Of a DNA stretch of 64,000 bases, positions 36,901-59,496 are shown piece after piece. This DNA comes from a virus. The position numbers and the translations under genes were made by a program. The notes under the pieces are model-generated. The model was not told where the DNA came from. It ran no database searches and saw only the letters and a program-made list of their open reading frames with translations. Every line of letters begins with the position of its first letter. Within the stretch, counting starts at the first letter, position 1. The stretch is from IMG/VR virus record IMGVR_UViG_3300044609_000988, positions 1 through 64,000 of that record. One strand, given 5' to 3'.

Positions 36901-39029
36901 GAAATGGATATACAGAACCACCTTCAGTAGTTATTCGTGGAACAGGAACTGGTGCAAGTGGAGCAGTAATTGAGTCTGTTATAGAAATTGATACCCCAGC
37001 AGTTCGCATGGGTATTGCAATCGATACTGCTGGAACTACGGCATCAACAATCCCAACTAGATTTAATTTTGAACATCCTGTATATTTACAGAATGATACT
37101 GAATATGCTTTAGCTATCGAAACAGATTCAACTGATTATAAGTTATGGGCATCTAGATTAACTGAAACTGAAGTAGCTACAGGAGCTGCAGTTACTGCAC
37201 AACCTTTACTCGGTTCCGTTTACAAATCACAGAATACTGATAACTGGACACAAGATTTATTTGAAGATATTAAATTTACTTTATATCGTGCTGAGTTTGA
37301 TATTAGCAGAAGTGCAGAACTTTTACTCACCAACGAAAATCCTGGTTATGAAAAATTAGAATTGGATCCGATTGAAACGTATGCTTTAGCCAATACTAAT
37401 GCAACTTCCCCATTATTCAAGAATAATAATTCCATCGTCAAAGTAAGACATAGAGATAATGGTTTTGAAACTTCGGGCAAATCATATGTATTCTTCAAAT
37501 CACTGAAGAATGTTGGTGGATTTAATGGTAGTGTTTTAAATTCTACTTTATTCAAAGTTTCTAACACAGGTCTAGACTATTACAATATTGTTGGTCCTAC
37601 TAGAGCAAGTTCCAACTCTGTTGGTGGCGGAGAAGAAGGATTGGTTTCTTATAATAGAAAGTTTGAAAAATTATATGCTCATATCAATTATATCCAAGCA
37701 CCAAATACCAAGATTGATAGTTTTGTAAAAACAACTAATATCATCCCAATTGATTCAAATACCCTAAATTATACTTCTTATTCACAATCTAATTTTGAAA
37801 AGACATTTATTAACGAAGAGCAATTCTTCACAAATCAAAAAATAATTGCTTCCCGCATCAATGAAATTTTAAATTCTGTAGATAGATCACTAACATACAA
37901 GATGCAGTTATCATCAACTGTATCATATCTATCACCTGTAATTGATCTTCGTGTTGCCTCAGTCAAAACCTCAACAAATCGAGTAGAAAATGCTGCTGGC
38001 AAAGAGCCTAGATTTGGCAAGAGATATCAAATTTTATCTTTCTTACCAATCTATCGTTTTACAATTAATGGAACTAGCCAGAATATTGAAATAAATCAAA
38101 CTATTGAAGGACTAACATCTGGTGCTAAAGGTAAAATAGTTAGAACTGAAGGTCAATCTGTTTGGGTAAAAGTTACTTCGCCATCAACCTTTACACAGCA
38201 AGAGTATGTATTCCTTTCTACTCAGTCGCAAGAAGGTGGTATTCTAGAAGGAATTGATATTTCAATTGCTAACAATAGCATTGTTCAGCAATCATTTAGT
38301 TTTGATATTGGTTCTACCGTTGTTGCATTTAATCCAAGTGCTACAAACGAAAAATATGACAACAAAATTAGTGGCAAAGTTGTTAATTGGGATTCTGCTT
38401 CCAGACAGTTAATTATAGAAAATGACAAAGCTCCAATCAATGCTGATTATGTAAGCAAGATTACTTTGGGTAGTGACTTCTCAAGAGAGCCTGATTCTGA
38501 TAATCAATCCCCAGATATTTTCCGTATTGGTGATATTCTTTATTATGATGGAATTGCTTTCGGAACAGAAGAATTTGTTGAGGTAGGTTCTATGGAATTT
38601 ACTAATGGCATTGATTTTGTTTCTGAAAGGGCATCAAACAATAGTTCTTCAGTTGCAAAATATGTAACTAAAGAAATCGCAATTAATCAACCAGGAACAT
38701 CTGTTGATGTGAGATTAACTTTAAATATCAAAGATATAGAAAATATTAAAGTTCTATACAAGATAAAGGAATCTTCCAGTCAAGTTAATTTCACTGATAT
38801 TGAATGGAATTACTTTAATATTGATGGCAATCCAGATAATAATGATTTGGCAACTTATTCAAACTCTATATCAGGTCAAATTGAAAATCAATCTGCATAT
38901 CAAGAATTGAAATATAGTGCCGCCAATTTATCTGAATTTAATTCATTTGCAATTAAAATTGTTATGAAGACAGATGATCCAGCTTATGTTCCGAAGATTC
39001 AAGATGTTCGTGCAGTTGCTTCTTATTGA
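30933..39029 (+). CDS. large virion structural protein (DUF4815/VrlC-like)
   Basis: MPQKTNLNVSPYYDDF...FY.VLF.PG..IQ.RELT.LQSILQNQIE; APGA.R; LARRTYDESGDY; RYTMRDIG.LEKRI..LEYYT. Confidence 0.88.
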   Translation: MPQKTNLNVSPYYDDFDAKKNFYKVLFRPGYSIQTRELTSLQSILQNQIESYGKFQFKQGDLVVPGEVGLNTRLDYVKLSSVSEVAVNVDGNIVFQKYDIKKLIGQQVQGITSGVVANVLAAEYSSSTESDTLFVKYTTSGNSGDELTFRQGETLEIINGVNTPLLVVGTDGSALPTSIKITDPDTNQSSFKESPAMGFASAVKVEEGIYFINGYFVRNNEQLLVINKYYNEPSLIVGFDIEENIIAPEQDASLYDNSKGFSNSTAPGAHRLTINLKLKTYEYGAQTDKNFIQLLSIKSGVVQKQIKQADYTLLESTLARRTYDESGDYVVDNFSLEVREYYQKNNNFGIFTKDSNNLVNGLSESEASSKLLASVGPGKAYVRGYEIVNGETKYLPINKSRDTITRDNITLKTQGLAEFKVTNVYGTIPLNDEGADATAYPTVFLNSVFNDGTIGLNDLESASNQKQTISRRSEGFEIGYGIKTIYISVSSLTNPIQTINDSNFDSVLNDLWFIKTRTGTTPSTIDSVRPIAYSKVNRPDLAADVALLELTIYGKKDLLSLFLKEYDEQSASKLRDVFLSQADAFANQNKFGSVVDYSEVITPVIGLAKPKNFSLVERGNGFNQDTDIVISRGRLNDGTASYNSTFKFNYFNPVFFTRLLLDSTVPESNISSQQFTPGKYIKGLQSGAYGVVEGSLTEFYSYGNTLFVKTLSGTFQPGESITDENGNILRIAKENTISHFIVAKRGAGFVNPTVTIDGVSYDNSKVKVFTEGSSVYRIDVLDRDSVSAEYSTPPIVVVNSAEATVSTCIVEPVLYRDTVYTYSPQNVKSFFAEYGSAKNNKFTADIEVNKTAYTDTTPITDFSFTGFAGDKYIECNGFGGDPTKLLTQGDLILFADDEGRTNRMIVQYTTKPEGSKKARIYLDYALPANAINVSVVRLRPQISNFNTSLIFPTGSSQVSSLIKDSADSKFKYYVRRDFITTGSSSGGSVTFAAQLPFGTQRFTSYSEQNFLITVIDRGSSTLVSNGDILYIDPSYVNVETSSDTTSGLTAGSVIITLPNNFFGNLTSNFPKLKLSATIEVTKAKPRLKTAIKNKRIVVTSSGDRVIPLRGQDYDTEEVEIFSYSDAYKLKYVYEGSSTNPPKVDTNGNLISGTDVTNRFTFDDGQRDTHYDVSRIILKPGFEAPVGQLVIGFDYFEHSQGDFCTVDSYLHEAGVGSEEIPSFNSSVYGITSLKDVIDFRPKADNDTIISGFQDKTLLSQQDYIKFSGPGGIIAGSPASDFNLEYTFSFSETQYLDRIDGVFLDKKGQFIIKEGNSSLNPSKPEIIDDAIALYYLYIPAYTDSNKDVRIIPVDNKRYTMRDIGKLEKRIERLEYYTLLSVLEQQALNMQIKDEIGLDRFKSGFVVDNFETHRIGNLQSIDYKCSIDTQQSVLRPQVKEDNFTLKEVYTRVDERQNAGYQKTGDVVTLPYTNVRLLGNNFATKTVSPNPFVVLQYVGDANISPSVDQWYNTDVVPLITDTNTNLFTIFLAKADSRDSFASFYNSFVVNWVGYNRNFYNIASLSNINSQQASSNVEIASVASTSNISPFNNETAKGVTTKTTNDNSVISSIQFFARSIPVKFNLTRLKPQTQIYVFMEGIDINRWAIPDIRYTGIAGNSPSSFNAPIVTDENGNASGIILIPAGKPPRENTSWTGNVQTVIYDDTASDVYITSGIKTIRFTSSSTNEVKDKVDTYTETKFYSSGTLPENPASIISTLPAYFKANEGVQLVDQSTSNKEKPNPLTQTFTVENFDGGVFVTGLDLYFNKKSDNIPVRVYLTNVDVGKPGKYIIPGTESALLPNTYLKVFASGNLTITVGEKVKGKSSGAEGPILKVYDKNNIEVLASTIGEISLSNEQVYTLVLSNHNGISFQQNEALEVPSVILYNNKTAQNLGLTIAKDSGKVVDLKIKNVGINYQSAILTIESPQLPGGSTATGTVDVSNGKIYNTEISIGGNGYTEPPSVVIRGTGTGASGAVIESVIEIDTPAVRMGIAIDTAGTTASTIPTRFNFEHPVYLQNDTEYALAIETDSTDYKLWASRLTETEVATGAAVTAQPLLGSVYKSQNTDNWTQDLFEDIKFTLYRAEFDISRSAELLLTNENPGYEKLELDPIETYALANTNATSPLFKNNNSIVKVRHRDNGFETSGKSYVFFKSLKNVGGFNGSVLNSTLFKVSNTGLDYYNIVGPTRASSNSVGGGEEGLVSYNRKFEKLYAHINYIQAPNTKIDSFVKTTNIIPIDSNTLNYTSYSQSNFEKTFINEEQFFTNQKIIASRINEILNSVDRSLTYKMQLSSTVSYLSPVIDLRVASVKTSTNRVENAAGKEPRFGKRYQILSFLPIYRFTINGTSQNIEINQTIEGLTSGAKGKIVRTEGQSVWVKVTSPSTFTQQEYVFLSTQSQEGGILEGIDISIANNSIVQQSFSFDIGSTVVAFNPSATNEKYDNKISGKVVNWDSASRQLIIENDKAPINADYVSKITLGSDFSREPDSDNQSPDIFRIGDILYYDGIAFGTEEFVEVGSMEFTNGIDFVSERASNNSSSVAKYVTKEIAINQPGTSVDVRLTLNIKDIENIKVLYKIKESSSQVNFTDIEWNYFNIDGNPDNNDLATYSNSISGQIENQSAYQELKYSAANLSEFNSFAIKIVMKTDDPAYVPKIQDVRAVASY

Positions 39030-44647: not shown

Positions 44648-47600
44648 ATGAGTTTTCAATTCAATTCTGATAAAGAAATAATTCAGGCAGTTAATCCAAA
44701 ACTCGTTGGTAGTAACGAACTTACTATTAGATCTGGAGAAGGCGCTTCTGAAAAAGAAATTTTTAGAGCACAATTAGATTCTCAAACTGGTTTACCAAGA
44801 GTTGGTATTAACAGAACTGGCAGACGAGTAGAAAGTATTAGGATTAATGAAGGTCAGGGAGGTACTGGTTACACACTAACTCCAAACGTAACTCTAACTG
44901 CACCAGATTTACCAAATGGTATTCAGGCTCTAGCTTCTGCTGTTGTTTTCAATGGCTCTGTTGTTGCTATTATTGTTGATAATTCTGGCGATGGATATTC
45001 GTTAGCTCCTGAAGTAACTATTACTGGAGGAAATGGTTCTGGCGCTGCTGCTACTGCTGTTTTGGACACAGTAGATTTTGAACTCGATATCAACGGTGCT
45101 ATCCGAACATCAACCTCAATTATTTCTGATACTGCTCGCATCTTAAACCTTGATATTGATAATTTTGTTACTCCCGATGCTAGTTTTAGAGCACCAAATT
45201 TAAAAACTTGGGCTAACGGCACTGGTACTCAATTTGTACCAAACGTAGTATTACAAAAAGATTCTTATAGATATGCTGCGGATAATATCTATCAGGCATT
45301 AAACACAGGAACAACAGGCTCTTCATTACCCATCCACAAAGATGGTATCGCTCTAAGTGGAGATGTTCAATTAAAGCATGTTGGTTATAGAGTAAATGAT
45401 GTAAATGCTCCGCACTATTTACAAACTGGAGAATCTGGTTTATTTCCAAGATCAATTACTCCTCTTCTTGGTGATAAATCAGATAAAATTGCTACCACAG
45501 AATATGTTCTGAACCTAGCTACTAATGACGTAGGTGGTCGTGTTTATGTTTCTGCCCAAATTGGTAATGATCAAAATGATGGTCGTTCTGCTGTTGCTCC
45601 AGTAAGAACTATTAAACGTGCTTGCCAAATTGCTTCGGCAACAGTAGGTGTTAAAGAAACTGTTATTATTTCGGGTGGCGACTATGTAGAAGATAACCCA
45701 ATTTCAATTCCAGCAGATTGTTCAATTGTTGGTGACAACTTACGTCTAGTAATTGTCAGACCAGCAAATCCCCGTAAACACATGTTTAAATTTGGGGATA
45801 AAAACTATCTAACAGGTCTTGTTTTCAGAGATCAAATTGATAGTAATGGGGATCCTGTGGCAACATGGGATTACGCCATGGTCTTTGATGACAAGCAAAG
45901 AATTTATTATGATTCTACTACTGGAGGAGATTTCGGAAGAAGCTTTCCGATTGGTCATCAAATTTTTGGACCACCTAGAATTAGAGTATCATTCCAAAAC
46001 CACACTGGCGGAACAGAATTAATTGCTGGGTTGAGCGTAAGTGGTATTAACACTGGCGCTTCGGGTTTAATTGCTGGCGTCACTTTTGAATCTACAACTG
46101 GCCCCGATGCTTATGTAAATGGTACAATTGATGTTGATATTACCAGTGGTTCGTTCAACAACGGAGAAACATTTGAATATACAGTAGGTATTGCTCCAGC
46201 ACAGCAAACATATGATTTCATTTCTACTGATATTACATCAATTAGAGCTGAAGGAGAAGTTGTATCTAATAACAAAGATTTAGCAATATCTTTACCAATT
46301 GTACGTATTGATTTTTCTCAACAAGGGACCGCAGAAACTTCCGAAGGGGGTTTCCAGTATGATCCAGCAGAGGATAATTCGGGTGGTATTGTTTTCTACA
46401 CCAACGCTCTAGTTGGTAGACAAAATACTCATGACTTTAAGGAAGGACAGCAAATTGAAATTCAAGGTCTCCCTATATCAGGACCAGATCTTTCTTATTT
46501 AAATGGCAAGCAAAGAATTTATAAAATTCTTCGTGATGCTGATGGAAGATCTAGAAGATTTGTTATTCAAAATAAACAAGATGAAAGTTTAACAGATTCT
46601 AATTTTATTCCAAATAATGCTTCTGTAAAATCATATGATTATTCTGTAACAGTATCTCTATTAAACTCACCAAACAAATTTGGGGTTGCTGAGTCAGTTT
46701 CCAGAAGATTTCAGGATGCTTGTATCTTAATTCGTAATAATATTCCTTTTATTGTTGATGAAGCTTATCTACAAATTAAAGATGAATTTGAGTATCTTGC
46801 TGTCCCAAATGAACAAAAATGTCGTAGAGATATTGGTCATTTTCTAAATGCTCTCATTCGTGACTTAGAATATGGAAGCAATTACCACACAATTGAAGCA
46901 GCTCAAACATATATTCAAAATGCTCAAATTGGATATTTGGGTAATGAAATTACCGAATCAGTAAGAGCATACGAGATCGCTAAAGATCTTGCTATCTTAG
47001 CGATGAGAAGATGGAGAACTGGCAATGGTCAACTTGCCAATTCATTATACACTCCACTATATTCATCGATTACTAGATATTTTGACCCAACTGTTATTCA
47101 AGACACTCTGGGAGCGGCCTGTGAGGACGTAGCAAGCGCCATCAATACCCTTGGGTATCTTTTTGTTGCAGTAATCACAAACAACGCTGTAGACCGTTAT
47201 CTAGACGCCTCAGAGCTGATTGCTCGTAATACTGATTTGATTGCCGAAGAAGCGGTAGGTTTTGTGCGAGCACAATATCCTGATCTTAATTTAAACCAAG
47301 ATAACTCAGAATCAAACAGATTTGTAGATGCAGCAAATTTAATTTTTGCTAACAAAGATGAAATTCAAGATAAAGCATTAGCACAAATTTCTGTAGAGTA
47401 TAGCGAAGCATCTTGGGGTACTGATTGGGTTATTCCTGGTGATACAATTAACCAAGACAATAAGAGAAACTTAGATTCTTATAGATTAATTCAAAAAAAT
47501 AGAACAGAAATTGTTAATAGTTCTTGGACACAATTAATTGCTCAATATCCAGGAGTAAGTACAACAGAAACTAAGTGCAAGAGAGACATTGGCTACTTTG

Positions 47601-50600
47601 TAGATGCTGTTTCGTTAGACGTATTTTTAGGTGGCAATAAGTATTCCAGAAAGTTTACTTTACAATATTTTAATAACGGAGCACCAATTTCAAATGGACT
47701 AGTTGGTGAGGAAACACAATCAGTATTTGCTTTTAATCAAGCCAGAGACTTGATGAAGTCGGCTATCACTAATCAGCTGACCTATAAAGATTTAACTATC
47801 ACAGCAGATTCTGCCACTGGTTCAAATACCTCCACATCATCTTGTTCTGACGTACAAACAAATATTACTAACCTTGTTTCCATAGTTACTGCAGTAATTT
47901 CTGCTGGAAATACAACTTCTCTGCCAGCAGAAAATGCTGGAACCATTTACAGCGGTTCATCGAAGTGCAGAAGAGATATTGGTTATTTTGCAACTGCTAT
48001 TGCAAACGATTTGGTCAGTGGAGGCAATTCAAATATTATCGAAGTTGCGAAATCATATTTCAATAACGGAACTCCAATTAGTAACGGTCTAGTGGGAGAA
48101 GAAGCTCAATCAGTTATTGCTTTCAACAAAGCAAAAGATCTAATGAAGTTGGCTATCACTAACCAACTTTACGCAAAAGATTTGACACTAACAGCTGATC
48201 CTCTTACCAATAACAACCAAGATCCAAATTCTTGTGCTAATGTCAAAACTGCTATTGATACCCTTGCCGCTATTGCTGTTACTTCTATTACCAATGGCAA
48301 TTTAACTTCTTTACCAACAGTAAACACTGGAAATACTGATATATGTAAGAGAGATATCAAGTATATTCTTTCTGCGGTAAGAAGAGATTTAACTCTTGGT
48401 GGAAATGCTGGTATGCTTACCGCTGCCGAAGCATACTTTACTGGAGCACAATTAACTGGAATACCAGAAGAAGAACTATCACCAACTCGTTATGCTTTTG
48501 AAAAAGTAAGAGATTTAGCCATTCTGGCAATGAGAAATTGGAAGACTGGTAACGGTACTGGAACTGTTTATATTCCAACATACACAATTAAGCAGCAATA
48601 TATTGATTCAACTATTGCTATTGATCCAGGAACTCCTATTTGTGCGAATGTTGCTTCATCTATTACAACATCATTTGCTTTACTGGATGATGTTCTTTCT
48701 GGGGAAATTCTTCCTGGTGCTACAGAAAAAACATACGGCACTTTATATGATACAACAAATATAGTATCTTTCCCAGACAATACTTTATACGATGCTAATA
48801 ATAAGGTAATTACTCCAAGAGCAACTTGGGATGATCTTCCTTATATTGAAGCTTCTCCATACACGCAAAACGCCTCAGTTATTTCATTCTTAGGCGGTGG
48901 TGGTGCTCTCATTGATGGTAGTAAAGTATCCCAGCCAAACTGCCCATTCCCAGGATTAGAATTAGACGGTTCGGCATCATTCCCAAATCAGGGTAAATCA
49001 ATGGTGGCGGCAGCGTTCACTATTGTGTCCTTCAATGGTGTTGGATATAAAATTATCAATGATGGATATGTACAGTTGGTTTCTGTATTCGTTCTATTTG
49101 CTGCTGATGGTGTACTTGCTGAGTCTGGTGGTTACGCTTCTATTACCAACTCAGCCACTAACTTCGGCATCTATGCTTTAAGAGCAAGAGGATACAATAA
49201 TTTTGCGTATAGTTTTGACGTTGGTACAATCACCAATGTATCCACAACCCCAACTGGAAGAACAATCTTTACAGTGGATGGTTTAGGTAGAGAACCACTA
49301 GAACATTATATTGTAAAAATTGATGGTTACAGCAACTTAAATCCAGAAATTGAATACTTTATCGATACTGTTTCTGGAGTTACAGTTGGTCCCCCATTCT
49401 CTGCTCAAATTACTTTAGAAAGTGGTTCTGGAGATCCAGCAGAATTTATTCGTGATTCCGACAATGTAGCTGTTAGCACAGGAATTGGGGAATTTTCTGG
49501 AAAAACTATAAGATTACACAGACCATCTATCGTTAACTCTTCATCGCACACATGGGAATTTGCTGGTTCTGGCACTAACTACAATGCTCTACCAGAAAAC
49601 GGTGGTGTTAAGATTGATGCTAACGAGCAAGTATCTCAGGATTATGGACGTGTTTACTGCTCGGGCACAGATGAACTTGGTGACTTTAAAGTAGGTACTT
49701 TTGCTAAGATCGAAAACAGAACTGGTAACATTACCTTTACAGGTACAGTTACAATTTCGGAAGTTGAATTCCTTAAATTGAAAGGTGGCGACGTTGTTGT
49801 TACTGGTTTTGATAACTCAAATACACTTGGCGGAGCTAATACAACCGACTCCAAACTACCAACTCAAAAGGCAGTTAGAGATTATATTACTAACAACCTC
49901 GGTCCTTATATTAATAAACCATATTCCACAAATGCTGTTCCTAGAGCACTTGTAGAATTAACAGATTCTGGTAAAATTTCTATTGATCAGATTCCTCCAC
50001 TACGTCCATTTAACGTATATACAATAGAGGATCAAGCAGAAAGACTTTCGATCGAAGGTGCTCTTGCTGGTGATATTGCTATTCAACAAGACACTGGCAC
50101 TTCATATATTTTAAATAATGATAATGATAGCCTATTTGTTTCCTTTGCTGTAGATACTGACTTAGTATTTACAATTGGAAATATTTTTACAGGTGATATT
50201 TCTGGCGGCCAAATTCAAGCTACAGAGTATCGCACTGGAGTAGTTTATCAAATTAGTCTTTCTAATGCTGGTTCTGGATATACAATTGCTCCAACAGTAA
50301 CTATTTCTGGAGGCAATCCTGGTGCTGGGGCTGTTCAAGCAAGTGCTATTGCTACAATTGCCAATGGTCAAGTTGTGACCGTACAAATTATAGAGTTCAA
50401 TGGGTTTGTTGGGGGCAAGGGATACACAACACCACCAACAATTACATTCTCTTCTCCTGGTGGTGCTGGAATTACTGCGACAGGTTCTTGCTTAATTGAA
50501 AGTAGATTATATGGCGATATCGTCAATAATGTTAAAATAACAGATACCGATACAATTCAGTCTAGCAATTCTCCCACAGATACAGTAAACATAAACAGAT

Positions 50601-53600
50601 CTGTAAATACCTCTGCTAATAATATTAATAATTGGGTATCACTTTCAACTACACAAATTTCTGCTACTGATATTACTTCTGGCGTTATTTCTACATCAAG
50701 ACTTGCTAATAACTCAGATGCTGCTAACTCATTTACTTTCTTAAGAGGAGATCAAAGCTATGCTCCTGTTCTTCAGTCGATTAAAGGAGCAGAAGTAAGA
50801 TACTTTGCTAAGCTAATTCAGCAAGCAAATACTGGATCTTCTCAGTTAGTATTCAGCACAAATTCCAATACATTACTTGGTCACTCAGTTATTGATAATG
50901 TATCTGGTATTGCTCCAAATACCAATATAACTGGCGTATTGAGTGCTGCTGGTATTACTACTGTATCGATCAATAATCCATTATCTCAAAATATTCCTTC
51001 AGGAACAATTATAGAATTTTTGAGAGGCGCTTCTCCACTTACTTTTGAATCATCTTTAACACAAGGTAATTTTGTTGATAACATTGTTGTTTCTAATGGA
51101 GGTTCTGGTTATACCAGTGGTCAATATTTTGATGTTCCATTAACAGGCGGTTCTGGAACAGGACTACGTTGTAATATTATTGTTTCTGGAGGTTCTGTTA
51201 CAGAAGTAACAACCACTAATAGTGGTCAAAATTACACAGGCGACTTTAATATCACTTCTTCTCCTGCTGCTATTGGTCCAGGATCTGGATTAGTTTTAGC
51301 AGCTAAAATTAGCACTGTTAATCGTCAATATGCCAATACTTCAATAGACATTCAAAGAGTTAGTGATCTAACAATTTCGGCAGACCCATTCGGTACGGTT
51401 GGTGTTTCTAGATTCCTTAAGTCACAATTTATTATTGGTCAAGCTGGAAACGGTTCCATTCAATTAAAAACTGGTCCTGATAGTGGTCTTGATGCTGACT
51501 TACTTGATGGTGCTCAGGGTGCTTTCTATCTAAATGCCAGTAACCTAAACTCTGGTACTGTATCAACAGATCGTCTATCTGGAACATACAACATAAGTAT
51601 TTCTGGACAATCTGGTAATACATTACGTCTAATTTCATCAACTTCAAACCCAACTTCAAACCCATCACCTAGCAATTTCGCTACTGGTGTTATCACTGAT
51701 ACAAAAAATAATAGCTCCGATGGTTTGAATGATGGTGGCTCAAGACACCTAGTAATGTCCATCAGAAATGGTGGTGCTGGATTTGACGCTACCTTCGGTG
51801 GTGTTAGACAACTAGCATTTACTGATAATGATAATATGTGGCTTCGTGGTTCTGGCACGGGGGTAAGTGAATTTGGCTCATGGGGTAAAGTTTGGACTTC
51901 ACTTAATGACGGTCCAGGAACTGATATGGATGCCGATAAACTTGATAACCGTCAAGGTACATGGTATCAAAATGCTTTAAATATTAACTTCGGAACTCTC
52001 AGTGATAATAGATTACCAACATATCAAACCACAAAGAGTTTCAACAGTTCCATTAAACTTTTAACAACTACAAATAATCCAAGATATAAAATTTATGTCA
52101 GCGGTTTATTATTAACAACTGCCCCATTCCTTGCTGGTTTAGAAGTTAATCTGTATAATGCCAATGCTCAAGGAACAGGAACAATTTTAATTACAAATAT
52201 TGAGACATTTGATGATGCTAATGATAACAATAATGATTACACTATCATTACTGGTTCTTTACAAACAGGCACATTTATCGGAGCCCTAACAATTGGTACA
52301 GCAAGTAACAGAATTACATTCCAAGATTTCAGTCTTGATGCAACTGGCACTTTCCAAACCGCTTCGCTTGATAGTGATGGTGGCATTGCTAGATTAAAAC
52401 TGGGTAGAAAAGATGGCACTGCTTCAGCTCCAGCTATTTACTTCAATTCTAGCCAATTAGCAGCTACAAATTATAATGCTGCTATTGTATCTTCTGGAGG
52501 AAATGCTACTGATGGTAGTGGTACATTAAATGTACTTGTAGCTAGTGCTAATGGATTAACAGTTAATAACAACACTGTTTGGAACGCTGGAAATGTAACG
52601 TTCAATAGCACTAATGTTTTAAGCACTGCAGTTATTCGTGATGCGTCTGGCAACTTTGCTGCTGGTACTATTACCGCTGCTTTAACTGGCGCTGCTTCGG
52701 CAAACGTCTTAAAGGCTGGCGATACCATGACTGGTTCGCTAACAATTAGCGGAGCAAGTAGTAATTTAAGTGTCGGCGGAACTCTTGGGGTTACAGGTAA
52801 TACTACTTTATCTGGTAGCTTGACGGTTGACACAAATACTTTATTTGTTGACTCTACGAATAATAGGGTTGGTATTGGAACAAATTCTCCTGTTGGTCCA
52901 TTATCACTTGATGTTAATGGAAAAGGAAGATTTATTGGCAATGCAGAAAATGGCAATGGTGGATATGCTTTATCTGTATGGGCTACAGGAGCATCTCAAA
53001 ATACAGGTATTTCGTTCTACCCAACATTTGATAATTTCCCTTCTGATACTGGCCCAAGAAGAGCAGTTGATTTAATTGCTGGATTTGATGGTGGAACATG
53101 GGAAACACAATATTTTGCCATTCACGTTGGTGGTTCTGGTGGAAATGATGTTCAAAATATCACAACAGAAAGATTAAGAATTATAAACACAGGTGAAGTT
53201 GGTATTGGAAGAACACCAGCAACTGGTTATTCATTAGATATTAATGGAAAGGCAAGAGTATCTACTGGATTTGAAATTGATAATAGTCTCGATAATTCAG
53301 GTGCTCCATTATTCTTCTTTGGTTCTTCGTCAGCAAGAAACTTTAGAATTGGTAACCAGTTACTTGTTAATGATGTATTTGAAATCACGCCATCAACTAC
53401 AGGTGGTGGTGCTACATTCACAACGCCAGCATTTTCTATTCGTGGTGCTGATGGTAATGTTGCTATTGGTTCAACTACATTTGCTAATCCAGGAAATACT
53501 ATTCAATATAAATTAAATGTTGCTGGTAATATTAACTTCACTGGAACTCTTTATCAAAATAATGAAGCTTTTGTAACTTCTAGATGGACTGCTTCATCGA

Positions 53601-53881
53601 ATGGAACTGATATTCATAGATTATCTAAGGTCGGAATTAATAAAGCAGATCCAGCATATACGTTAGATGTTGGCGGAGATGTTAATTTAACTGGCAAAAT
53701 ATATGTTTCTGGTAATGCTCAGTGGATAGATACTAAAGGTATTATTAGAACTTCGTCAAATTTAATTAGCGAAGATATAACTATTCCTACTAATACTAAT
53801 GCTGTAAGCACTGGACCACTAGTAATAAATACAAATAACATCATCACGATTTCTGAAGGTGCTGTTTGGACAATCGTGTAA
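44648..53881 (+). CDS. giant tail fibre/tailspike-like protein with beta-helix, phycobiliprotein-like inserts and fibre repeats
   Basis: YVS...GND..DG.S...P.RTI..A beta-helix cap, DAD.LDG and RVGIGT..P...LDV.G fibre motifs, four CxRDI modules. Confidence 0.8.
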   Translation: MSFQFNSDKEIIQAVNPKLVGSNELTIRSGEGASEKEIFRAQLDSQTGLPRVGINRTGRRVESIRINEGQGGTGYTLTPNVTLTAPDLPNGIQALASAVVFNGSVVAIIVDNSGDGYSLAPEVTITGGNGSGAAATAVLDTVDFELDINGAIRTSTSIISDTARILNLDIDNFVTPDASFRAPNLKTWANGTGTQFVPNVVLQKDSYRYAADNIYQALNTGTTGSSLPIHKDGIALSGDVQLKHVGYRVNDVNAPHYLQTGESGLFPRSITPLLGDKSDKIATTEYVLNLATNDVGGRVYVSAQIGNDQNDGRSAVAPVRTIKRACQIASATVGVKETVIISGGDYVEDNPISIPADCSIVGDNLRLVIVRPANPRKHMFKFGDKNYLTGLVFRDQIDSNGDPVATWDYAMVFDDKQRIYYDSTTGGDFGRSFPIGHQIFGPPRIRVSFQNHTGGTELIAGLSVSGINTGASGLIAGVTFESTTGPDAYVNGTIDVDITSGSFNNGETFEYTVGIAPAQQTYDFISTDITSIRAEGEVVSNNKDLAISLPIVRIDFSQQGTAETSEGGFQYDPAEDNSGGIVFYTNALVGRQNTHDFKEGQQIEIQGLPISGPDLSYLNGKQRIYKILRDADGRSRRFVIQNKQDESLTDSNFIPNNASVKSYDYSVTVSLLNSPNKFGVAESVSRRFQDACILIRNNIPFIVDEAYLQIKDEFEYLAVPNEQKCRRDIGHFLNALIRDLEYGSNYHTIEAAQTYIQNAQIGYLGNEITESVRAYEIAKDLAILAMRRWRTGNGQLANSLYTPLYSSITRYFDPTVIQDTLGAACEDVASAINTLGYLFVAVITNNAVDRYLDASELIARNTDLIAEEAVGFVRAQYPDLNLNQDNSESNRFVDAANLIFANKDEIQDKALAQISVEYSEASWGTDWVIPGDTINQDNKRNLDSYRLIQKNRTEIVNSSWTQLIAQYPGVSTTETKCKRDIGYFVDAVSLDVFLGGNKYSRKFTLQYFNNGAPISNGLVGEETQSVFAFNQARDLMKSAITNQLTYKDLTITADSATGSNTSTSSCSDVQTNITNLVSIVTAVISAGNTTSLPAENAGTIYSGSSKCRRDIGYFATAIANDLVSGGNSNIIEVAKSYFNNGTPISNGLVGEEAQSVIAFNKAKDLMKLAITNQLYAKDLTLTADPLTNNNQDPNSCANVKTAIDTLAAIAVTSITNGNLTSLPTVNTGNTDICKRDIKYILSAVRRDLTLGGNAGMLTAAEAYFTGAQLTGIPEEELSPTRYAFEKVRDLAILAMRNWKTGNGTGTVYIPTYTIKQQYIDSTIAIDPGTPICANVASSITTSFALLDDVLSGEILPGATEKTYGTLYDTTNIVSFPDNTLYDANNKVITPRATWDDLPYIEASPYTQNASVISFLGGGGALIDGSKVSQPNCPFPGLELDGSASFPNQGKSMVAAAFTIVSFNGVGYKIINDGYVQLVSVFVLFAADGVLAESGGYASITNSATNFGIYALRARGYNNFAYSFDVGTITNVSTTPTGRTIFTVDGLGREPLEHYIVKIDGYSNLNPEIEYFIDTVSGVTVGPPFSAQITLESGSGDPAEFIRDSDNVAVSTGIGEFSGKTIRLHRPSIVNSSSHTWEFAGSGTNYNALPENGGVKIDANEQVSQDYGRVYCSGTDELGDFKVGTFAKIENRTGNITFTGTVTISEVEFLKLKGGDVVVTGFDNSNTLGGANTTDSKLPTQKAVRDYITNNLGPYINKPYSTNAVPRALVELTDSGKISIDQIPPLRPFNVYTIEDQAERLSIEGALAGDIAIQQDTGTSYILNNDNDSLFVSFAVDTDLVFTIGNIFTGDISGGQIQATEYRTGVVYQISLSNAGSGYTIAPTVTISGGNPGAGAVQASAIATIANGQVVTVQIIEFNGFVGGKGYTTPPTITFSSPGGAGITATGSCLIESRLYGDIVNNVKITDTDTIQSSNSPTDTVNINRSVNTSANNINNWVSLSTTQISATDITSGVISTSRLANNSDAANSFTFLRGDQSYAPVLQSIKGAEVRYFAKLIQQANTGSSQLVFSTNSNTLLGHSVIDNVSGIAPNTNITGVLSAAGITTVSINNPLSQNIPSGTIIEFLRGASPLTFESSLTQGNFVDNIVVSNGGSGYTSGQYFDVPLTGGSGTGLRCNIIVSGGSVTEVTTTNSGQNYTGDFNITSSPAAIGPGSGLVLAAKISTVNRQYANTSIDIQRVSDLTISADPFGTVGVSRFLKSQFIIGQAGNGSIQLKTGPDSGLDADLLDGAQGAFYLNASNLNSGTVSTDRLSGTYNISISGQSGNTLRLISSTSNPTSNPSPSNFATGVITDTKNNSSDGLNDGGSRHLVMSIRNGGAGFDATFGGVRQLAFTDNDNMWLRGSGTGVSEFGSWGKVWTSLNDGPGTDMDADKLDNRQGTWYQNALNINFGTLSDNRLPTYQTTKSFNSSIKLLTTTNNPRYKIYVSGLLLTTAPFLAGLEVNLYNANAQGTGTILITNIETFDDANDNNNDYTIITGSLQTGTFIGALTIGTASNRITFQDFSLDATGTFQTASLDSDGGIARLKLGRKDGTASAPAIYFNSSQLAATNYNAAIVSSGGNATDGSGTLNVLVASANGLTVNNNTVWNAGNVTFNSTNVLSTAVIRDASGNFAAGTITAALTGAASANVLKAGDTMTGSLTISGASSNLSVGGTLGVTGNTTLSGSLTVDTNTLFVDSTNNRVGIGTNSPVGPLSLDVNGKGRFIGNAENGNGGYALSVWATGASQNTGISFYPTFDNFPSDTGPRRAVDLIAGFDGGTWETQYFAIHVGGSGGNDVQNITTERLRIINTGEVGIGRTPATGYSLDINGKARVSTGFEIDNSLDNSGAPLFFFGSSSARNFRIGNQLLVNDVFEITPSTTGGGATFTTPAFSIRGADGNVAIGSTTFANPGNTIQYKLNVAGNINFTGTLYQNNEAFVTSRWTASSNGTDIHRLSKVGINKADPAYTLDVGGDVNLTGKIYVSGNAQWIDTKGIIRTSSNLISEDITIPTNTNAVSTGPLVINTNNIITISEGAVWTIV

Positions 53882-53895
53882 TAAAAAATAATTAA

Positions 53896-54777
53896 ATGGA
53901 TCCAATTTCTTCAAAATTAACATCTAATAACATTAATATCTCCAGGGGATTAATTTTACCTGTTTACACCAATGACCCTGGGGATGGCAACCCAGGGGAG
54001 ATTATTTATGTTAATGGACAATTAAAATATTATAGAGAAGGAAAATGGTTATTCATAACTGATGGAAAGAAAGATGGATTGACAGAAGCCACTGCTGTTG
54101 ACAAATCAACAGATATTCTTGTAGCAAATCCATCTGCTCCCAGTGGTTGGTATTGGATAAAAACAAATAATGTAGCTAGACAATATTGGGTAGATAATAC
54201 CTATGATGGTGGTGGATGGGTTTTGGTTGGCAGTCACCCAATTAATGTTTCAATTCAAGCTTTAACATATGCTCAAGCGGCAGAATCTTATTCAGGAAAT
54301 GCTTCTTCTACATATGGAACAGGAGATCCAAAATCATATTCTGTTTGGGTTGGATTAAATGGATGGGATGCTATTGCTACAGCAAACGCTGCTGGCAGAA
54401 ATTTTGTTTATTACACCGCTAATTCTCAAGTTTCTTTGGGATCTACTGCTTCGCATGTTAGAAGAAGTAGATGGAAGTGGAGCGGATGGAATTCTTTATA
54501 TTCTTGGAATAATGCCAACACTTTAATTAATGAAGTTGGTGCTTCTACTCCAGGTTTATGGTATTATCATATGTCATATAATTTCACTACATATGACAGA
54601 GACCAAGATGCTTATAGTGCTAATTGTGCTACTCTTTATAATAATGCTCCTTGGTGGTATGGAGCTTGTTGGGATGGCAATTTTTGGGGAGGAAATGGAA
54701 GTGGATATGCTAACGCTGCTTTCTGGACAGGTTCTGGAGGAGATTATTACAACTATGGAGCAATGTACGTAAAATGA
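53896..54777 (+). CDS. fibre-tip/adhesin with fibrinogen C-terminal-like domain
   Basis: SGWYWI...DGGGWVLV...FTTYDRDQD....NCA......WWY..C...N matches the fibrinogen-related domain pattern. Confidence 0.75.
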   Translation: MDPISSKLTSNNINISRGLILPVYTNDPGDGNPGEIIYVNGQLKYYREGKWLFITDGKKDGLTEATAVDKSTDILVANPSAPSGWYWIKTNNVARQYWVDNTYDGGGWVLVGSHPINVSIQALTYAQAAESYSGNASSTYGTGDPKSYSVWVGLNGWDAIATANAAGRNFVYYTANSQVSLGSTASHVRRSRWKWSGWNSLYSWNNANTLINEVGASTPGLWYYHMSYNFTTYDRDQDAYSANCATLYNNAPWWYGACWDGNFWGGNGSGYANAAFWTGSGGDYYNYGAMYVK

Positions 54778-55019
54778 AAAAACCCTGTAATAGACTTAAA
54801 ATAGCAAAAAACAAAATTGATGTTGATTCTGAAGGAATGTTTACTTATATCTTTGAATGGTATAATAATGAAAAATTAATGATACAAGAACCATACAAAA
54901 TTCAATCAGATAATTATGGATTACCAATTGAAAATTATAATATTAATGAAATGATCGAACATAAACAATATTGTTGTTTAGAAATAGATTCAAATACTCT
55001 AAAAATAGAAGAAATTTAA
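54774..55019 (+). CDS. hypothetical protein
   Basis: 81-aa ORF overlapping the upstream stop. Confidence 0.65.
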   Translation: MKKPCNRLKIAKNKIDVDSEGMFTYIFEWYNNEKLMIQEPYKIQSDNYGLPIENYNINEMIEHKQYCCLEIDSNTLKIEEI

Positions 55020-55023
55020 TCCA

Positions 55024-55947
55024 ATGGCAGCCAATTCAAAATTAACATCCAACAACATTAATATCACCAAGGGATTAATTTTACCTGTATATGACGTAGA
55101 TCCTGGTGATGGCAATGCGGGAGAGATTGCTTATGTTAATGGACAATTAAAATATTATGTCGGTGGAAAATGGACATTCATAACAGAAGGCAAAGATGGG
55201 TCTACTGCTGATAGAGCAGCTGAGTCAGCATCGGCAATTCTCGCAATAAATCCCTCTGCTTCTGATGGCGTTTATTGGATTAATTTACCTACGGCTGGAC
55301 CAACACAAGTCTATTGTATTATGAATAATTCATATAATGGAGGTGGATGGATGATGGCAATGAAAGCAACTAGAGGAACAACTTTCAATTTCAACGCAAA
55401 TTATTGGACAACAACAAATACATTAAATCCAACTCAAACAAATATTAATGATGGGGATGCAAAATTTGAAACCTTCAACAGATTTGAAGCAAAAGATATT
55501 TTAGCAGTTTGGCCAGATTTAACAGCAAACTCAGGTTGTTTTAATGTTTCTAGGGGGCATATTTGGTTGGAAAATAGTTTTTGGCAGGGAGGAACTAAAA
55601 TTACTTTAACAAATCTGTTTAATACAGCTAATGAATATTTTATTCGGGATGCTAATAATTTCTGTGGCATCAACCAATTTTCTCGCCAAACTGATGTTAG
55701 ATTTTATGGATTTAATTATTCAAATGATCAAAATTTAGCTAGGACTAGGTGGGGATTTGGTTGGAATGAAAATGGAGGTGGCCTTTGGCCGAATGGAAAT
55801 CAAGGAAGTGATGATGTATCGGGTGGTATTGGTATGACAGGAACTCAACAAGGACAGGTCAATTATTCTGCTGGAGATTTTATTGGTTGCTGTCAAAGTG
55901 TCACGGGATTTAATAGATCAGCAAGAGTAGAGATTTATGTCAGATAA
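55024..55947 (+). CDS. fibre-tip/adhesin, fibrinogen/intelectin-like
   Basis: Shared N-module then DGVYWI......QVYC.M....GGGWM. Confidence 0.7.
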   Translation: MAANSKLTSNNINITKGLILPVYDVDPGDGNAGEIAYVNGQLKYYVGGKWTFITEGKDGSTADRAAESASAILAINPSASDGVYWINLPTAGPTQVYCIMNNSYNGGGWMMAMKATRGTTFNFNANYWTTTNTLNPTQTNINDGDAKFETFNRFEAKDILAVWPDLTANSGCFNVSRGHIWLENSFWQGGTKITLTNLFNTANEYFIRDANNFCGINQFSRQTDVRFYGFNYSNDQNLARTRWGFGWNENGGGLWPNGNQGSDDVSGGIGMTGTQQGQVNYSAGDFIGCCQSVTGFNRSARVEIYVR

Positions 55948-56002
55948 TATGAATCTTTCAAATTACAAAATATCGTTGATTAATTAAAAATTAATAATTT
56001 TA

Positions 56003-56848
56003 ATGGATAATTCAAAATTAACATCTAACAACATTAATATCACCAAGGGATTAATTTTACCTGTGTATGACGTAGATCCTGGTGACGGTACTATGGGGGA
56101 AATTGTTTATGTCAATGGACAATTAAAATATTATGTGGGTGGAAAATGGACATTCATAACTGATGGAAAAATAGGAACATCAGCTAGTTCACCTGCATTA
56201 AACGCAGCTCAAATTAGAGCTGCTGGGATAAGTGCTGATGGTGATTACTGGTATCAACCAACAGGGGCATCGTCACCGATTCAGTTGTATACAAATTTTT
56301 CAAATGCTCCAGCAGGAAAAGGTTATGTTCTCGTTGCTAGAGGAAGAGAATCTACTGATTGGTGGAATACTAACGGACAAAATACTTCCGCTTTAACATC
56401 ATCTTCATTAGATACAAATACACCAATTGCTGTTCTTCCAAACACATTTGTGAATGGTTTAATTAATAATCAGTGGAATGGAATGAGATTCATAACAAAT
56501 AGAAGAAATGGAGCAGATTCTTGGTTATTTGTTGGAACCCAAAGCACTACTTTTAGTTGGACTTATTTTCAGCAATCTGGATCTAGCGTTTCAGCTACTG
56601 CTCAACAATTTAATGGAGTATTTTTATCTGGTGGAGCACGAATAACATATGGATCTGGAATATATTGGACAGATACTTTAAATTATGGAAATGGTAATAA
56701 CTGCGATAGAACATTTACTTGGTCATGGGGAGGTCATGGATCTTGGCAAGGGTGGTCTGGTGGATCTTCATGTACTCCAACTGGATCTTTCCAACTTGGA
56801 GGTGAAGGTCACGCACTTCAATTAGTAAATTGCTACGTAGAGTGCTAA
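56003..56848 (+). CDS. fibre-tip/adhesin, divergent fibrinogen-like
   Basis: Shared N-module then DGDYW..P.......LY......GYVLVAR. Confidence 0.65.
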   Translation: MDNSKLTSNNINITKGLILPVYDVDPGDGTMGEIVYVNGQLKYYVGGKWTFITDGKIGTSASSPALNAAQIRAAGISADGDYWYQPTGASSPIQLYTNFSNAPAGKGYVLVARGRESTDWWNTNGQNTSALTSSSLDTNTPIAVLPNTFVNGLINNQWNGMRFITNRRNGADSWLFVGTQSTTFSWTYFQQSGSSVSATAQQFNGVFLSGGARITYGSGIYWTDTLNYGNGNNCDRTFTWSWGGHGSWQGWSGGSSCTPTGSFQLGGEGHALQLVNCYVEC

Positions 56849-56901
56849 ATTATAATTATAATTATAATTAATAAATATTTTAACGGAATAGAGTGTCATT
56901 T

Positions 56902-57957
56902 ATGTCTACATTAAATGTCGGTATTTTAAATGCCAGTAACAGAATAAAACTTCCTATACTCACAACTACCCAAAGAAATTCTTTGGCGCTTGAAGTGGGA
57001 TTGATGATTTTTAATTCTACTGCCAGTGAAGTTCAATTTTATAATGGAACTGAGTGGATAAATCCAGGCAAAGGTAAACTTAGTGCTACTGGAGGAGTTA
57101 TTACTACAGCTGGATTATATAAAGTTCACACATTTACAGGTAATGGGTCTTTTGTACTTACGGGAAGTGGGTTGGTAGAATATTTAATCGTTGCTGGTGG
57201 TGGCGGCGGCGGTTCTGATATGGGTGGCGGCGGTGGAGCTGGTGGAGTAATTATTGGTTCTACAACTTTATCATCTGGAACATATCCAATAACAGTTGGT
57301 GGAGGAGGCAGTGGTGCTCCTGCAGGAGTAGGACAAGTTAGAGGAACTAACGGAAATCCCTCAACTTTTAATAATTTAACAGCTATTGGTGGTGGTGGCG
57401 GTGCTAGTTGCCATGATAGATCAACAAGCCCAGCAGGAAATGGTGGATCAGGAGGAGGAGCATCTGGCGGAGGAACTCTTCCTAGTGGAGGATCTGGAGG
57501 TGGTGGATACGGGGGAGGAATTAGAGGATTAGGAACTCCTGGTCAAGGAAATGATGGAGGGTCAGGAATATATGCTTGGTATCCTGGCGGCGGTGGTGGT
57601 GCTGGAGCTGCTGGAACAAACAACCCAGCAACTGGTGGCGTTGGAGTGCAAAGTTCTATTCTAGGTGTTTCTTACTTCTGGGGCGGCGGCGGCGGCGGAT
57701 CTGGATATTCTGCAGGCGGAGGAAATGGTGGTAATGGTGGCGGCGGCGGTGGAGCCGTAAACGTTACTTCTGGCGGTTCTGGATTAAATAATGGATCCCC
57801 TGGTGGTGGAGGAAGTCCAAATTCACAAACCAATAGGCCTGGAGGTAATGGTGGCGCCAACACTGGTGGCGGCGGTGGTGGTGGTAGTCACTACAGTGCT
57901 AATAATTTTGGCGGTACTGGTGGTTCTGGAATAGTTGTAGTAAGATACTTAGCATAA
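56902..57957 (+). CDS. glycine-rich tail adhesin-like protein
   Basis: LP..TT.QR..L..G..IFN module, ATGG...HTF...EYL.VAGGGGG...GGSGIVVVRY; late promoter ATAAATA about 56871. Confidence 0.8.
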   Translation: MSTLNVGILNASNRIKLPILTTTQRNSLALEVGLMIFNSTASEVQFYNGTEWINPGKGKLSATGGVITTAGLYKVHTFTGNGSFVLTGSGLVEYLIVAGGGGGGSDMGGGGGAGGVIIGSTTLSSGTYPITVGGGGSGAPAGVGQVRGTNGNPSTFNNLTAIGGGGGASCHDRSTSPAGNGGSGGGASGGGTLPSGGSGGGGYGGGIRGLGTPGQGNDGGSGIYAWYPGGGGGAGAAGTNNPATGGVGVQSSILGVSYFWGGGGGGSGYSAGGGNGGNGGGGGGAVNVTSGGSGLNNGSPGGGGSPNSQTNRPGGNGGANTGGGGGGGSHYSANNFGGTGGSGIVVVRYLA

Positions 57958-57996
57958 ATAATTATTAATGCAATACGATAATTTTGAGGATATTTC

Positions 57997-59079
57997 ATGT
58001 CTAGATTAAACGTAGGTATTATAGAAGCTGTATCTAAATTTAAAATCCCTACTTTTACTAAAGCACAAAGAGATGCTATGGTGCCAGAAACTGGCATGAT
58101 GATATATAATTCAACTGATCAAATACTTGAAATTTATTTCGGAAAATGGGTAGGTGCTGGAGAAAAAGTATCAGCTTCAGGATCTTCATTCACTGCAACT
58201 GGAGGTACTGTAACAACAGCTGGAGGATATAAAATACATACTTTTTTGGCAAATGATACTTTTGCTATATCTACAGGTACAACTTCAATTGAATATTTAA
58301 TCGTTGCTGGTGGCGGTGGCGGTGGTATGGATATGGGTGGTGGCGGTGGAGCTGGCGGAGTAATTATTGGCTCCACTTCTTTAGGTCCTGGTTCATATCC
58401 AGTAACAGTGGGTGCGGGAGGAAATGGTGCTCCAGCTGCTAGCACAAACGGACAACCAGGCGGTCACCAATATACTATTTCAGCTACCAATGGAATTAAT
58501 TCAACTTTTAACAATTTAACCGCTGTTGGTGGTGGATTTGGTGGTAGTTCTTATTATGGATATCTCCCAAATTATGGCAACGGCAACACTGGTGGTTCTG
58601 GTGGAGGAAATTCTGGCTACAGTGATGGTAATATACGTGGTCCCAAAGCAGGAACTCTTGGTCAAGGAAATAATGGAGGGCAAGGCGGAGGACAATATTA
58701 TTCTGGCGGTGGTGGTGGTGCTGGCGCTGCTGGATCTAATTCCCCAAGCCAAGCAAACGGTGGTATTGGAGTACAAAGTTCAATAACTGGCGTTAGTTAT
58801 TATTGGGGCGGCGGTGGCGGAGGAGCCGCTTATTCTTTAGGATCTGGTGGATCTGGTGGAAATGGTGGTGGCGGTGGTGGCGCTGGCAATAGTCCTGGAA
58901 TAGGTGGGGCTGGATTAAATTCTGGATCTAACGGTGGGCCATCAAATAGTAACCAACCAGGGGGAAATGCTGGCACAAACACTGGTGGCGGTGGTGGTGG
59001 CAGCGCTCATTACAACTCCAACAATAAAGGTGGTAATGGTGGTTCTGGAATAGTTGTAATTAGATACTTATCTACATAA
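57997..59079 (+). CDS. glycine-rich tail adhesin-like protein (paralogue of preceding gene)
   Basis: Same architecture; late promoter ATAAATA 57954. Confidence 0.8.
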   Translation: MSRLNVGIIEAVSKFKIPTFTKAQRDAMVPETGMMIYNSTDQILEIYFGKWVGAGEKVSASGSSFTATGGTVTTAGGYKIHTFLANDTFAISTGTTSIEYLIVAGGGGGGMDMGGGGGAGGVIIGSTSLGPGSYPVTVGAGGNGAPAASTNGQPGGHQYTISATNGINSTFNNLTAVGGGFGGSSYYGYLPNYGNGNTGGSGGGNSGYSDGNIRGPKAGTLGQGNNGGQGGGQYYSGGGGGAGAAGSNSPSQANGGIGVQSSITGVSYYWGGGGGGAAYSLGSGGSGGNGGGGGGAGNSPGIGGAGLNSGSNGGPSNSNQPGGNAGTNTGGGGGGSAHYNSNNKGGNGGSGIVVIRYLST

Positions 59080-59097
59080 TATAAAGGAGAATTAAAA

Positions 59098-59487: not shown

Positions 59488-59496
59488 TTTAGTATT

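Follow-up and report, generated by a model that had tools for sequence, protein, structure and literature searches.

Probably nested phycobiliprotein-type globin domains in a predicted baseplate-associated fibre protein of T4-like cyanophages and their possible role in bilin binding

Residues 685–1350 of P0001, a 3077-residue protein encoded at positions 44648–53881 (plus strand) of the window, by which we mean the 64,000-nucleotide stretch from IMG/VR virus record IMGVR_UViG_3300044609_000988 that is analysed here, consist of globin domains of the phycobilisome protein family (PF00502). The domains are of the beta-subunit type and appear to lack the X–Y hairpin. Three of them are probably nested like Russian dolls behind one ordinary domain, with each insertion falling between helices B and E. 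Judged from its sequence relatives, P0001 belongs to the baseplate-associated fibre proteins of T4-like cyanomyoviruses, the hosts of which are marine cyanobacteria. Its match to phrog_5342 (‘tail fiber protein’) extends over the full length (E = 0; best stretch residues 1312–3077), and its closest isolate relatives in a tblastn search are found in S-WAM2 (53% identity) and S-PM2 (52% identity), the latter being the orthologue S-PM2p088, whose gene context is also shared. An original prediction, made from the sequence without database searches, had placed phycobiliprotein-like modules in a virion tail protein, and the gene is indeed located among baseplate and fibre genes.

Phycobiliprotein homology and probable nested architecture

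The homology proposed in the original prediction is supported by sequence and predicted fold. PF00502 matches the whole of P0001 with E = 3.1e-8 (34.2 bits, cut-off 22.2) and residues 679–1361 with E = 1.7e-11 (44.8 bits) in three stretches. By itself, module 1 gives a weak match (E = 0.06), while modules 3 and 4 each give no Pfam match. Among the NCBIfam models, CpcA and CpeA are matched weakly and in part, far under their cut-offs. None of the Pfam globin families matches the whole of P0001 or residues 679–1361.

A profile, A1, was built from 48 aligned modules from 80 fetched IMG/VR loci, out of 139 relatives of residues 847–1091, and has a mean column identity of 51%. It was split into an A–B hairpin (h, positions 1–35) and an E–H unit (E, positions 36–156). 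Against the sequences of the PDB the A1 profile gives 109 matches at E ≤ 1, with CpcA as the best (E = 0.0012). The best 60 of these 109 are all phycobiliprotein-family chains or engineered derivatives, the derivatives including the allophycocyanin-derived smURFP and ‘bacterial fluorescent protein beta’. The first cysteine of the unit (profile Cys42) aligns on CpcA Cys84, together with Arg86 and Asp87, and a Cys-x-Arg-Asp motif is present in all four units of the window, as originally proposed. The Asp of the hairpin aligns on Asp39 of the beta chain. An identity of 11 out of 21 residues to alpha-phycocyanin, given in the original prediction, is obtained again when residues 1106–1126 are compared by eye with CpcA chain 8iml_A.

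The AlphaFold2 model of the A1 module is phycobiliprotein-like, with a mean predicted local distance difference test score (pLDDT) of 94.2 and a predicted template-modelling score (pTM) of 0.90. All rows listed by Foldseek are phycobiliprotein chains, mostly beta, with a query template-modelling score (TMq) of 0.61–0.75 and 14–18% identity; this comparison of models had been suggested with the original prediction and bears it out. In a second fold search, VIA, over 48,161 chains, the first eight rows are phycobiliproteins or ApcE, with Z scores of 12.9–16.5 and a root-mean-square deviation (r.m.s.d.) of about 2 Å. For 5aqd_M, 137 of the 155 model residues are aligned (Z = 16.5, 2.0 Å). The stressosome protein RsbR, photocobilin and globin-coupled sensor domains follow at a Z score of about 11 (11.7 or less). 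Haem globins, globin-coupled sensors and RsbR thus rank lower in VIA and are not closer relatives than the phycobiliproteins.

The model has a globin-type fold consisting of helices A, B, E, F′, G and H. It aligns only from residue 30 of the phycobiliprotein chains, from which it follows that the module has no X–Y hairpin of its own. In the model of the nested array described below, residues 1–184 of 5aqd_M align to model residues 61–241, though at an r.m.s.d. of 4.7 Å. The Pfam score above cut-off, the profile matches in the PDB, the AlphaFold2 model and the two fold searches together make the homology claim sound. A scan of cellular genome contigs with module 2, which demands near-exact peptide words, returned no cellular relative.

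The order of elements found in P0001 with the split profile is h E h h h E E E, and a search of the record with the whole profile agrees. The four repeats of the original prediction are therefore present as four E–H units, and their claimed span, 46700–48700, fits the array found by the profile (46700–48697). The repeats are not equal, however: a complete module (residues 685–847) is followed by three hairpins and then by three E–H units. Module 1 consists of hairpin h1 with helices A and B (residues 685–716, positions 46700–46795; split-profile E = 2.5e-13) and E–H unit 1 (residues 720–847, 46805–47188; E = 1.8e-31), with Cys725 in KCRRD and Cys825. Next come the outermost hairpin of the array, h2 (residues 850–879, 47195–47284; E = 2.7e-4 with the split and 6.3e-4 with the whole profile), which forms helices 5–16 and 18–32 of the array model, the middle hairpin h3 (residues 888–920, 47309–47407; E = 1.6e-5 and 2.0e-4, respectively) and the innermost hairpin h4 (residues 937–970, 47456–47557; E = 6.6e-18; PF00502 match 936–1009). 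Hairpin h4 is contiguous with E–H unit 2 (residues 972–1090, 47561–47917; E = 1.9e-60; AlphaFold2 model), which contains Cys977 in KCKRD and Cys1066, and together they form the innermost domain. E–H unit 3 (residues 1104–1219, 47957–48304; E = 2.1e-46; profile positions 36–155 only), with Cys1107 in KCRRD and Cys1196, has no hairpin of its own and would pair with h3. E–H unit 4 (residues 1231–1350, 48338–48697; E = 1.3e-14), with Cys1233 in ICKRD and Cys1332, is likewise expected, in agreement with the array model, to pair with h2. All of these elements are on the plus strand.

The nine strings quoted in the original prediction each occur once in the translation of P0001, exactly at the residues given there, and the N-terminal half that it quoted, the hairpin RYLDAS…, begins at residue 850. 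The four cysteine pairs, 725/825, 977/1066, 1107/1196 and 1233/1332, are spaced by 100, 89, 89 and 99 residues. P0001 contains only 15 cysteines in its 3077 residues, eight of which are accounted for by two per module.

Comparable strings are found in relatives. S-PM2p088 reads hE hhh hE EEE and S-PM2p218 reads hhEE, and many IMG/VR loci read hhhEEE, hhEE or show longer balanced strings such as hhEhhhhEEEEEhE. The family was represented by a library of 1322 clusters at 50% identity, and the best 150 representatives were classed as nested (67) or tandem (83). Runs of at least two hairpins are present in 43 of the 67 nested-class representatives, and in none of the 67 do hairpins outnumber E–H units. 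The hairpin count minus the E–H count is 0 in 11 of them, −1 in 25, −2 in 14 and lower in 17; these deficits fit hairpins of 30 residues that were missed, or cut proteins. Strings with runs of hairpins can be generated by repeated insertion between helices B and E but not by tandem duplication of whole domains.

An AlphaFold2 model of residues 845–1355, calculated with 16 sequences, has a pTM of 0.79 and a pLDDT of 76.8. In four of 50 VIA rows one globin chain is aligned across residues 1–508 of this model, for example 1ith_B (131 of 141 residues aligned, Z = 6.6) and 4uii_B (Z = 8.5), with Z values that are modest. A single globin spanning the model in this way means that the outermost hairpin and the last unit form one globin domain in it. 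The middle pairing, h3 with E–H unit 3, is seen in none of the 50 VIA rows, and a two-chain prediction of the outer hairpin with E–H unit 4 scores 0.26 against a mark of 0.32.

At a number of loci downstream of the lyase gene cpeT (L102, L106–L108, L110–L115 and L117) the innermost E–H unit is itself interrupted: after some 65 residues the match to the profile breaks off, to continue 0.8–0.9 kb further on, as if a further domain had been inserted.

Attachment sites, lyase genes and adsorption

Conservation of the putative pigment-attachment sites was counted over 306 distinct E–H units from the IMG/VR loci and the window, using non-gap positions only. The equivalent of Cys84 (Cys1) is kept in 255 of 258 units, that of Asp87 in all 259 and that of Arg86 in 234 of 259, while the second cysteine (Cys2) is kept in 195 of 207 and the hairpin Asp in 223 of 231. 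Where both cysteine positions are covered, 147 units have both, 12 have Cys1 only, one has Cys2 only and none lacks both. That the two are never lost jointly argues against an obligate disulfide pair. In beta subunits Cys84 and Cys155 are far apart. An intramodule Cys1–Cys2 disulfide was considered as the principal explanation and rejected, since the cysteines are not lost together and the modules of the tandem class have one cysteine each. The original prediction equated Cys2 with the beta Cys155 site. Its location agrees with this, being directly before helix H in every unit; the residue equivalence itself is judged from alignment ranges only, with model residue 131 expected to meet residue 165 of 5aqd_M if the last helix is aligned without gaps.

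The tandem class (for example P0009–P0013) comprises giant proteins of up to 6382 residues with 14–35 modules in tandem, each containing one Cys-x-Arg-Asp and no second cysteine. Across 1128 such units, Cys occupies its position in 1099 of 1116 cases, and Asp does so in 1119 of 1124. The nearest isolate protein is the ‘baseplate wedge initiator’ of DSL-LC03 (35%). Among 50,697 phage records, 350 match the module region of the window and 183 match a tandem-class protein, and all of these are cyanophage or marine. Across the family the number of modules per protein ranges from two to 35. Two module proteins, P0032 and P0086, are found on short fresh-water contigs labelled as NCBI metagenome-assembled genomes of Nanopelagicaceae and Minisyncoccia; these contigs are probably phage DNA that was binned by mistake.

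No CpeT, bilin reductase or haem oxygenase is found in the record of P0001, which agrees with the original remark that the window has no lyase. This is uninformative, as the full record of 81,108 bases is a fragment rated 42% complete. We compared the module profile and the Pfam CpeT family (PF06206) with the whole records of 22 cyanomyoviruses, namely the 16 of Sullivan 2010, five of cluster C and DSL-LC03. Both features are present in 13 genomes, modules alone in one and neither in eight, and no genome has cpeT alone; a check for co-occurrence had been suggested with the original prediction. Within the Sullivan 2010 set, the 13 phages out of 16 that have modules are the identical 13 that have CpeT. 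Eleven of these reach E ≤ 1e-3, while for P-SSM7 and S-ShM2 it is only the summed score that exceeds the cut-off. Both features are absent from P-SSM2, S-SM2 and S-SSM7, which form one clade in the portal tree (support 99/96) and so represent one event. A second negative lineage, without modules and without CpeT, is formed by the five phages placed in cluster C in PMC10665884. No S-type lyase was found in the 16 cyanomyoviruses of Sullivan 2010. Syn1 is listed without cpeT in Table 3 of Sullivan 2010 (PMC3037559); in its record, NC_015288, Syn1_028 (19938–20477) is annotated as cpeT and matches PF06206 with E = 1.5e-35.

The lyase gene is also close to the module gene. S-PM2 and Syn1 share the order GC730, cpeT, 2OG-Fe(II) oxygenase, giant module protein (GC734) and gp12. 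In 20 of 21 IMG/VR loci a long-form cpeT is located 0.5–2.1 kb upstream of the module array on the same strand, and the 21st locus ends 189 nt past cpeT. These 21 loci are relatives, with CpeT identities of 56–100%. PhiCpeT of P-HM1 reportedly binds phycoerythrobilin tightly and does not transfer it to host CpeB. T-type lyases serve the beta-155-type site, as stated in a review (PMC10452541). Phage lyases of unclear substrate, invoked in the original prediction, are a matter of record: in Sullivan 2010 (PMC3037559) the role of phage cpeT is called unresolved, and bilin genes are described there in phages of Prochlorococcus, a host without phycobilisomes.

The 2OG-Fe(II) oxygenase gene (T4-GC104) between cpeT and the giant module gene (S-PM2, AJ630128 162500–178000; Syn1, NC_015288 18500–34500) may encode a modifying enzyme of the giant module protein. 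In AJ630128 sixteen tRNA features are annotated inside CDS S-PM2p218, which looks like a coordinate fault of that record.

Module-bearing SSM1_102 of S-SM1 (T4-GC969), the gene of which adjoins gp9, is among the proteins reported from purified virions in Sullivan 2010 (PMC3037559). Light-dependent adsorption of cyanophages, to which the original prediction also referred, is described in Liu 2019 (PMC6628666). According to that article, P-HM1 and P-HM2 fail to adsorb without light, P-SSM2 adsorbs in darkness too, if less well than when illuminated, and dark adsorption is also seen with the podoviruses P-SSP7 and P-GSP1, while S-PM2 is stated to need light but not photosynthesis (Jia 2010 as cited in Liu 2019). 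Module matches number five in P-HM1, five in P-HM2 and 11 in S-PM2 versus none in P-SSM2 and none in P-SSP7.

Bilin binding and competing explanations

That the domains still bind bilin is a serious possibility that falls just short of probable. In the infected cell, phycoerythrobilin or phycocyanobilin supplied by host or phage enzymes would become thioether-linked to the Cys84-type cysteine, with the conserved Arg and Asp holding it in place. The cysteine before helix H, a type of site that is served by T-type lyases such as phage CpeT, would receive a second bilin. Virions would in that case be released with bilins on their fibres. A more speculative extension is that light absorbed by these bilins shifts fibre or baseplate conformation and in this way gates adsorption. 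Such light gating would account for the light requirement of S-PM2 and P-HM1/2 in adsorption, but we regard it as rather unlikely. The broader proposal, that virions of most T4-like cyanophages carry bilins attached covalently by CpeT, an enzyme with a puzzling substrate, to nested domains of fibres and baseplate and that the array is a photoreceptor making adsorption light-dependent, is likewise doubtful.

A number of observations weigh against pigmented, light-sensing domains. Between helices F′ and G the model has a loop with short strands and not helix F, which might alter the pocket. Of 259 units, 25 have Asp, Thr or Glu in the place of Arg86, and Arg is also replaced in the majority of the modules that Syn9, S-SM1 and the second of the P-HM2 proteins contain (C-x-D-D, C-K-T-D); such residues would not suit a propionate contact. 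When hairpins and units are paired according to the nesting, hairpin Asp and Cys2 are both present in 165 cases, Asp only in 11, Cys2 only in four and neither in none, and in the absence of joint loss the second site has no support from covariation. Moreover, the units come from related phages, and the site counts are not independent.

The lyase data show similar weak points. DSL-LC03 has modules but neither CpeT nor CpeS. An S-type lyase is encoded by four of the five cluster C phages, all module-less (above the family cut-off in three, as a weak match in the fourth), and P-SSM2 and S-SSM7 carry pebS and ho1 according to Table 3 of Sullivan 2010 (PMC3037559), yet have no modules in our search. 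Phage bilin genes consequently have other uses. As there is one negative clade, and as S-PM2 and Syn1 are sister phages, both the co-occurrence and the linkage go back to a small number of independent events. In the S-PM2 record p086, p087 and p089–091 are labelled as virion structural proteins and p088 is not. The correlation between modules and light requirement is perfect in the phages compared, but these represent three or four lineages only. To our knowledge, cyanophage particles have not been reported to be coloured or fluorescent.

It is quite possible, if not quite to the degree of a probable explanation, that a host phycobiliprotein gene was captured and lost its bilin binding, and that its products now provide the fibre with rigid helical spacers or adhesin modules. 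Cys, Arg and Asp would then be kept for folding, for disulfides that form between modules or chains in oxidising seawater once the virion is released, or for metal binding, and cpeT would accompany the modules only as one of the old features of the same phage clades. The substitution of Arg by Asp or Thr in many modules, the lack of covariation between the site-2 residues and the absence of a predicted helix F all agree with empty domains, as do the modules of DSL-LC03 without any phage lyase and the phylogenetically clumped co-occurrence with cpeT. Furthermore, the modules belong to ordinary fibre and baseplate proteins in which they are repeated two to 35 times, like structural repeats. On the other hand, the lone cysteine kept throughout the tandem class is an odd cysteine that intramodule disulfides explain poorly, and in the nested class Cys1 stays when Cys2 is lost (12 versus 1). 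Loss of binding also does not readily account for an invariant Asp87 equivalent in modules with a mean column identity of only 51%, for the lack of any genome with cpeT and no modules (0 of 13) or for the physical linkage of long-form cpeT to the module gene.

By analogy with other non-haem and bilin-binding globins, such as the photocobilin globin domain and RsbR-type sensors, the pocket could instead bind biliverdin, haem or a metal via the cysteine and not a phycobilin, which we consider improbable. RsbR, photocobilin and globin-coupled sensor domains do come next after the phycobiliproteins in VIA, but the sequence signal is specific to PF00502 and to the Cys-x-Arg-Asp bilin motif, and no His is found among the invariant or nearly invariant columns of A1. 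Still less credible is an intracellular role in which the modules act as a sink for bilin or lyase, or as a mimic that disturbs phycobilisome assembly before the virion is assembled, with presence in the virion being incidental. It would be in line with the finding that phages alter host pigment content, mentioned in a review (PMC2984593). Against it stand the apparent lack of the X–Y hairpin, which is needed to join alpha–beta units, the embedding of the modules in giant structural proteins encoded among baseplate genes and the detection of a module-bearing protein in the purified virions of Sullivan 2010 (PMC3037559). The ‘phycobilisome mimic’ put forward originally finds no support for the same structural reason, the X–Y hairpin being what builds alpha–beta units. 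Finally, a chance resemblance of a merely helical region might be suspected from the lack of a Pfam match for modules 3 and 4 by themselves and from the ease with which helical folds reach middling Z scores, but it is for practical purposes refuted by the Pfam score above the curated cut-off, the phycobiliprotein identity of the best 60 of 109 PDB sequence matches and the exclusively phycobiliprotein top fold matches, with 137 of 155 residues superposed at 2.0 Å.

If bilin-carrying virions were real, they would answer why cpeT is present in many cyanomyoviruses that lack the remainder of the host operon, why phages of Prochlorococcus carry bilin genes although the host has no phycobilisomes, and how adsorption can need light but not host photosynthesis. 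We know of no precedent for a pigment-bearing, light-sensing virion. A literature search gave no description of phycobiliprotein-type domains in phage particles, although supplementary domain tables might mention PF00502. Even if the domains are empty, globins inserted recursively into one another's B–E loops, to a depth of up to several levels, make for an uncommon protein architecture, and with 1322 clusters the family is a large one. New here are the nesting, the cysteine statistics, the lyase table of 22 genomes with its exception, the cpeT linkage and the correlation with adsorption.

Gene neighbourhood and comparison with known systems

The window contains a plus-strand row of baseplate and fibre genes, which includes the P0001 gene. 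Upstream of the latter are a gp6-like gene (17698–19497), an open reading frame (ORF) of 3168 residues with a YHYH domain (19503–29009; E = 3.3e-28), a gp8-like gene (29064–30893) and the gene of a 2698-residue protein with DUF4815 (30933–39029; E = 9.1e-48). Two matches to PHROGs annotated ‘virion structural protein’ are located between the DUF4815 gene and that of P0001. The profile search of the record found no phycobiliprotein module in either giant neighbour (19503–29009 and 30933–39029).

Just 3′ of the P0001 gene, a plus-strand gene at 53896–54777 matches Fibrinogen_C (E = 1.3e-5; 25.6 bits versus a cut-off of 22), and a paralogue-like ORF (55024–55947; phrog_1325) is next. These two may encode lectin-type receptor-binding tips. 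The G+C content is 0.478 at 12001–16000 versus 0.31–0.41 elsewhere in the window. The longest ORF of this G+C-rich stretch (13074–14162, minus strand, 362 residues) overlaps a plus-strand ORF at 13113–13859; it was considered as a psbA candidate and dropped, as Pfam gives no match. The GC skew is 0.14–0.22 at 52001–64000 versus about 0 to 0.07 over most of the window, and is −0.09 at 12001–16000.

Among known systems, the giant fibre and baseplate proteins of T4-like cyanophages (phrog_5342; T4-GC 830, 734 and 969) are those with which P0001 shares its full-length phrog_5342 match, and its gene follows gp6, gp8 and VrlC-like genes as that of S-PM2p088 does. A literature search found no description of these proteins as containing phycobiliprotein-type domains.

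With the phycobiliprotein beta subunits (CpeB, CpcB and cryptophyte beta chains) the phage modules share the PF00502 family, the globin-type fold, the Cys-x-Arg-Asp on helix E at Cys84/Arg86/Asp87, the long G–H loop, a putatively equivalent second cysteine before helix H and the hairpin Asp at beta-Asp39. Unlike these subunits, they apparently have no X–Y hairpin, have no alpha partner, are not free-standing subunits of 17–20 kDa, appear in the model to have a loop with short strands in place of helix F and are only 14–18% identical. They are also embedded, and in part nested, in a virion protein of 3077 residues, and are known here from sequence and models. Assembly into (alpha–beta)3 discs as in the phycobilisome is argued against by the fibre-gene context and the lack of the X–Y hairpin.

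Two further structures are, by their entry titles, bilin-binding proteins from outside the antenna: the ‘bacterial fluorescent protein’ 8u0f (8u0f_C: Foldseek TMq 0.75, r.m.s.d. 2.4 Å) and the photocobilin globin domain 8j2w (8j2w_B: VIA Z = 11.7). As far as we know, both are cellular proteins and not parts of virions, and nesting is not known for either.

In ApcE a phycobiliprotein domain is likewise fused into a large multidomain protein, and it aligns with the module model over 117 residues (VIA Z = 15.2, r.m.s.d. 1.9 Å). Helices B and E of ApcE flank its PB-loop insertion, and it is at this point that the phage domains are interrupted. ApcE, which is part of the phycobilisome, has a loop at this site, whereas the phage protein accommodates whole domains there.

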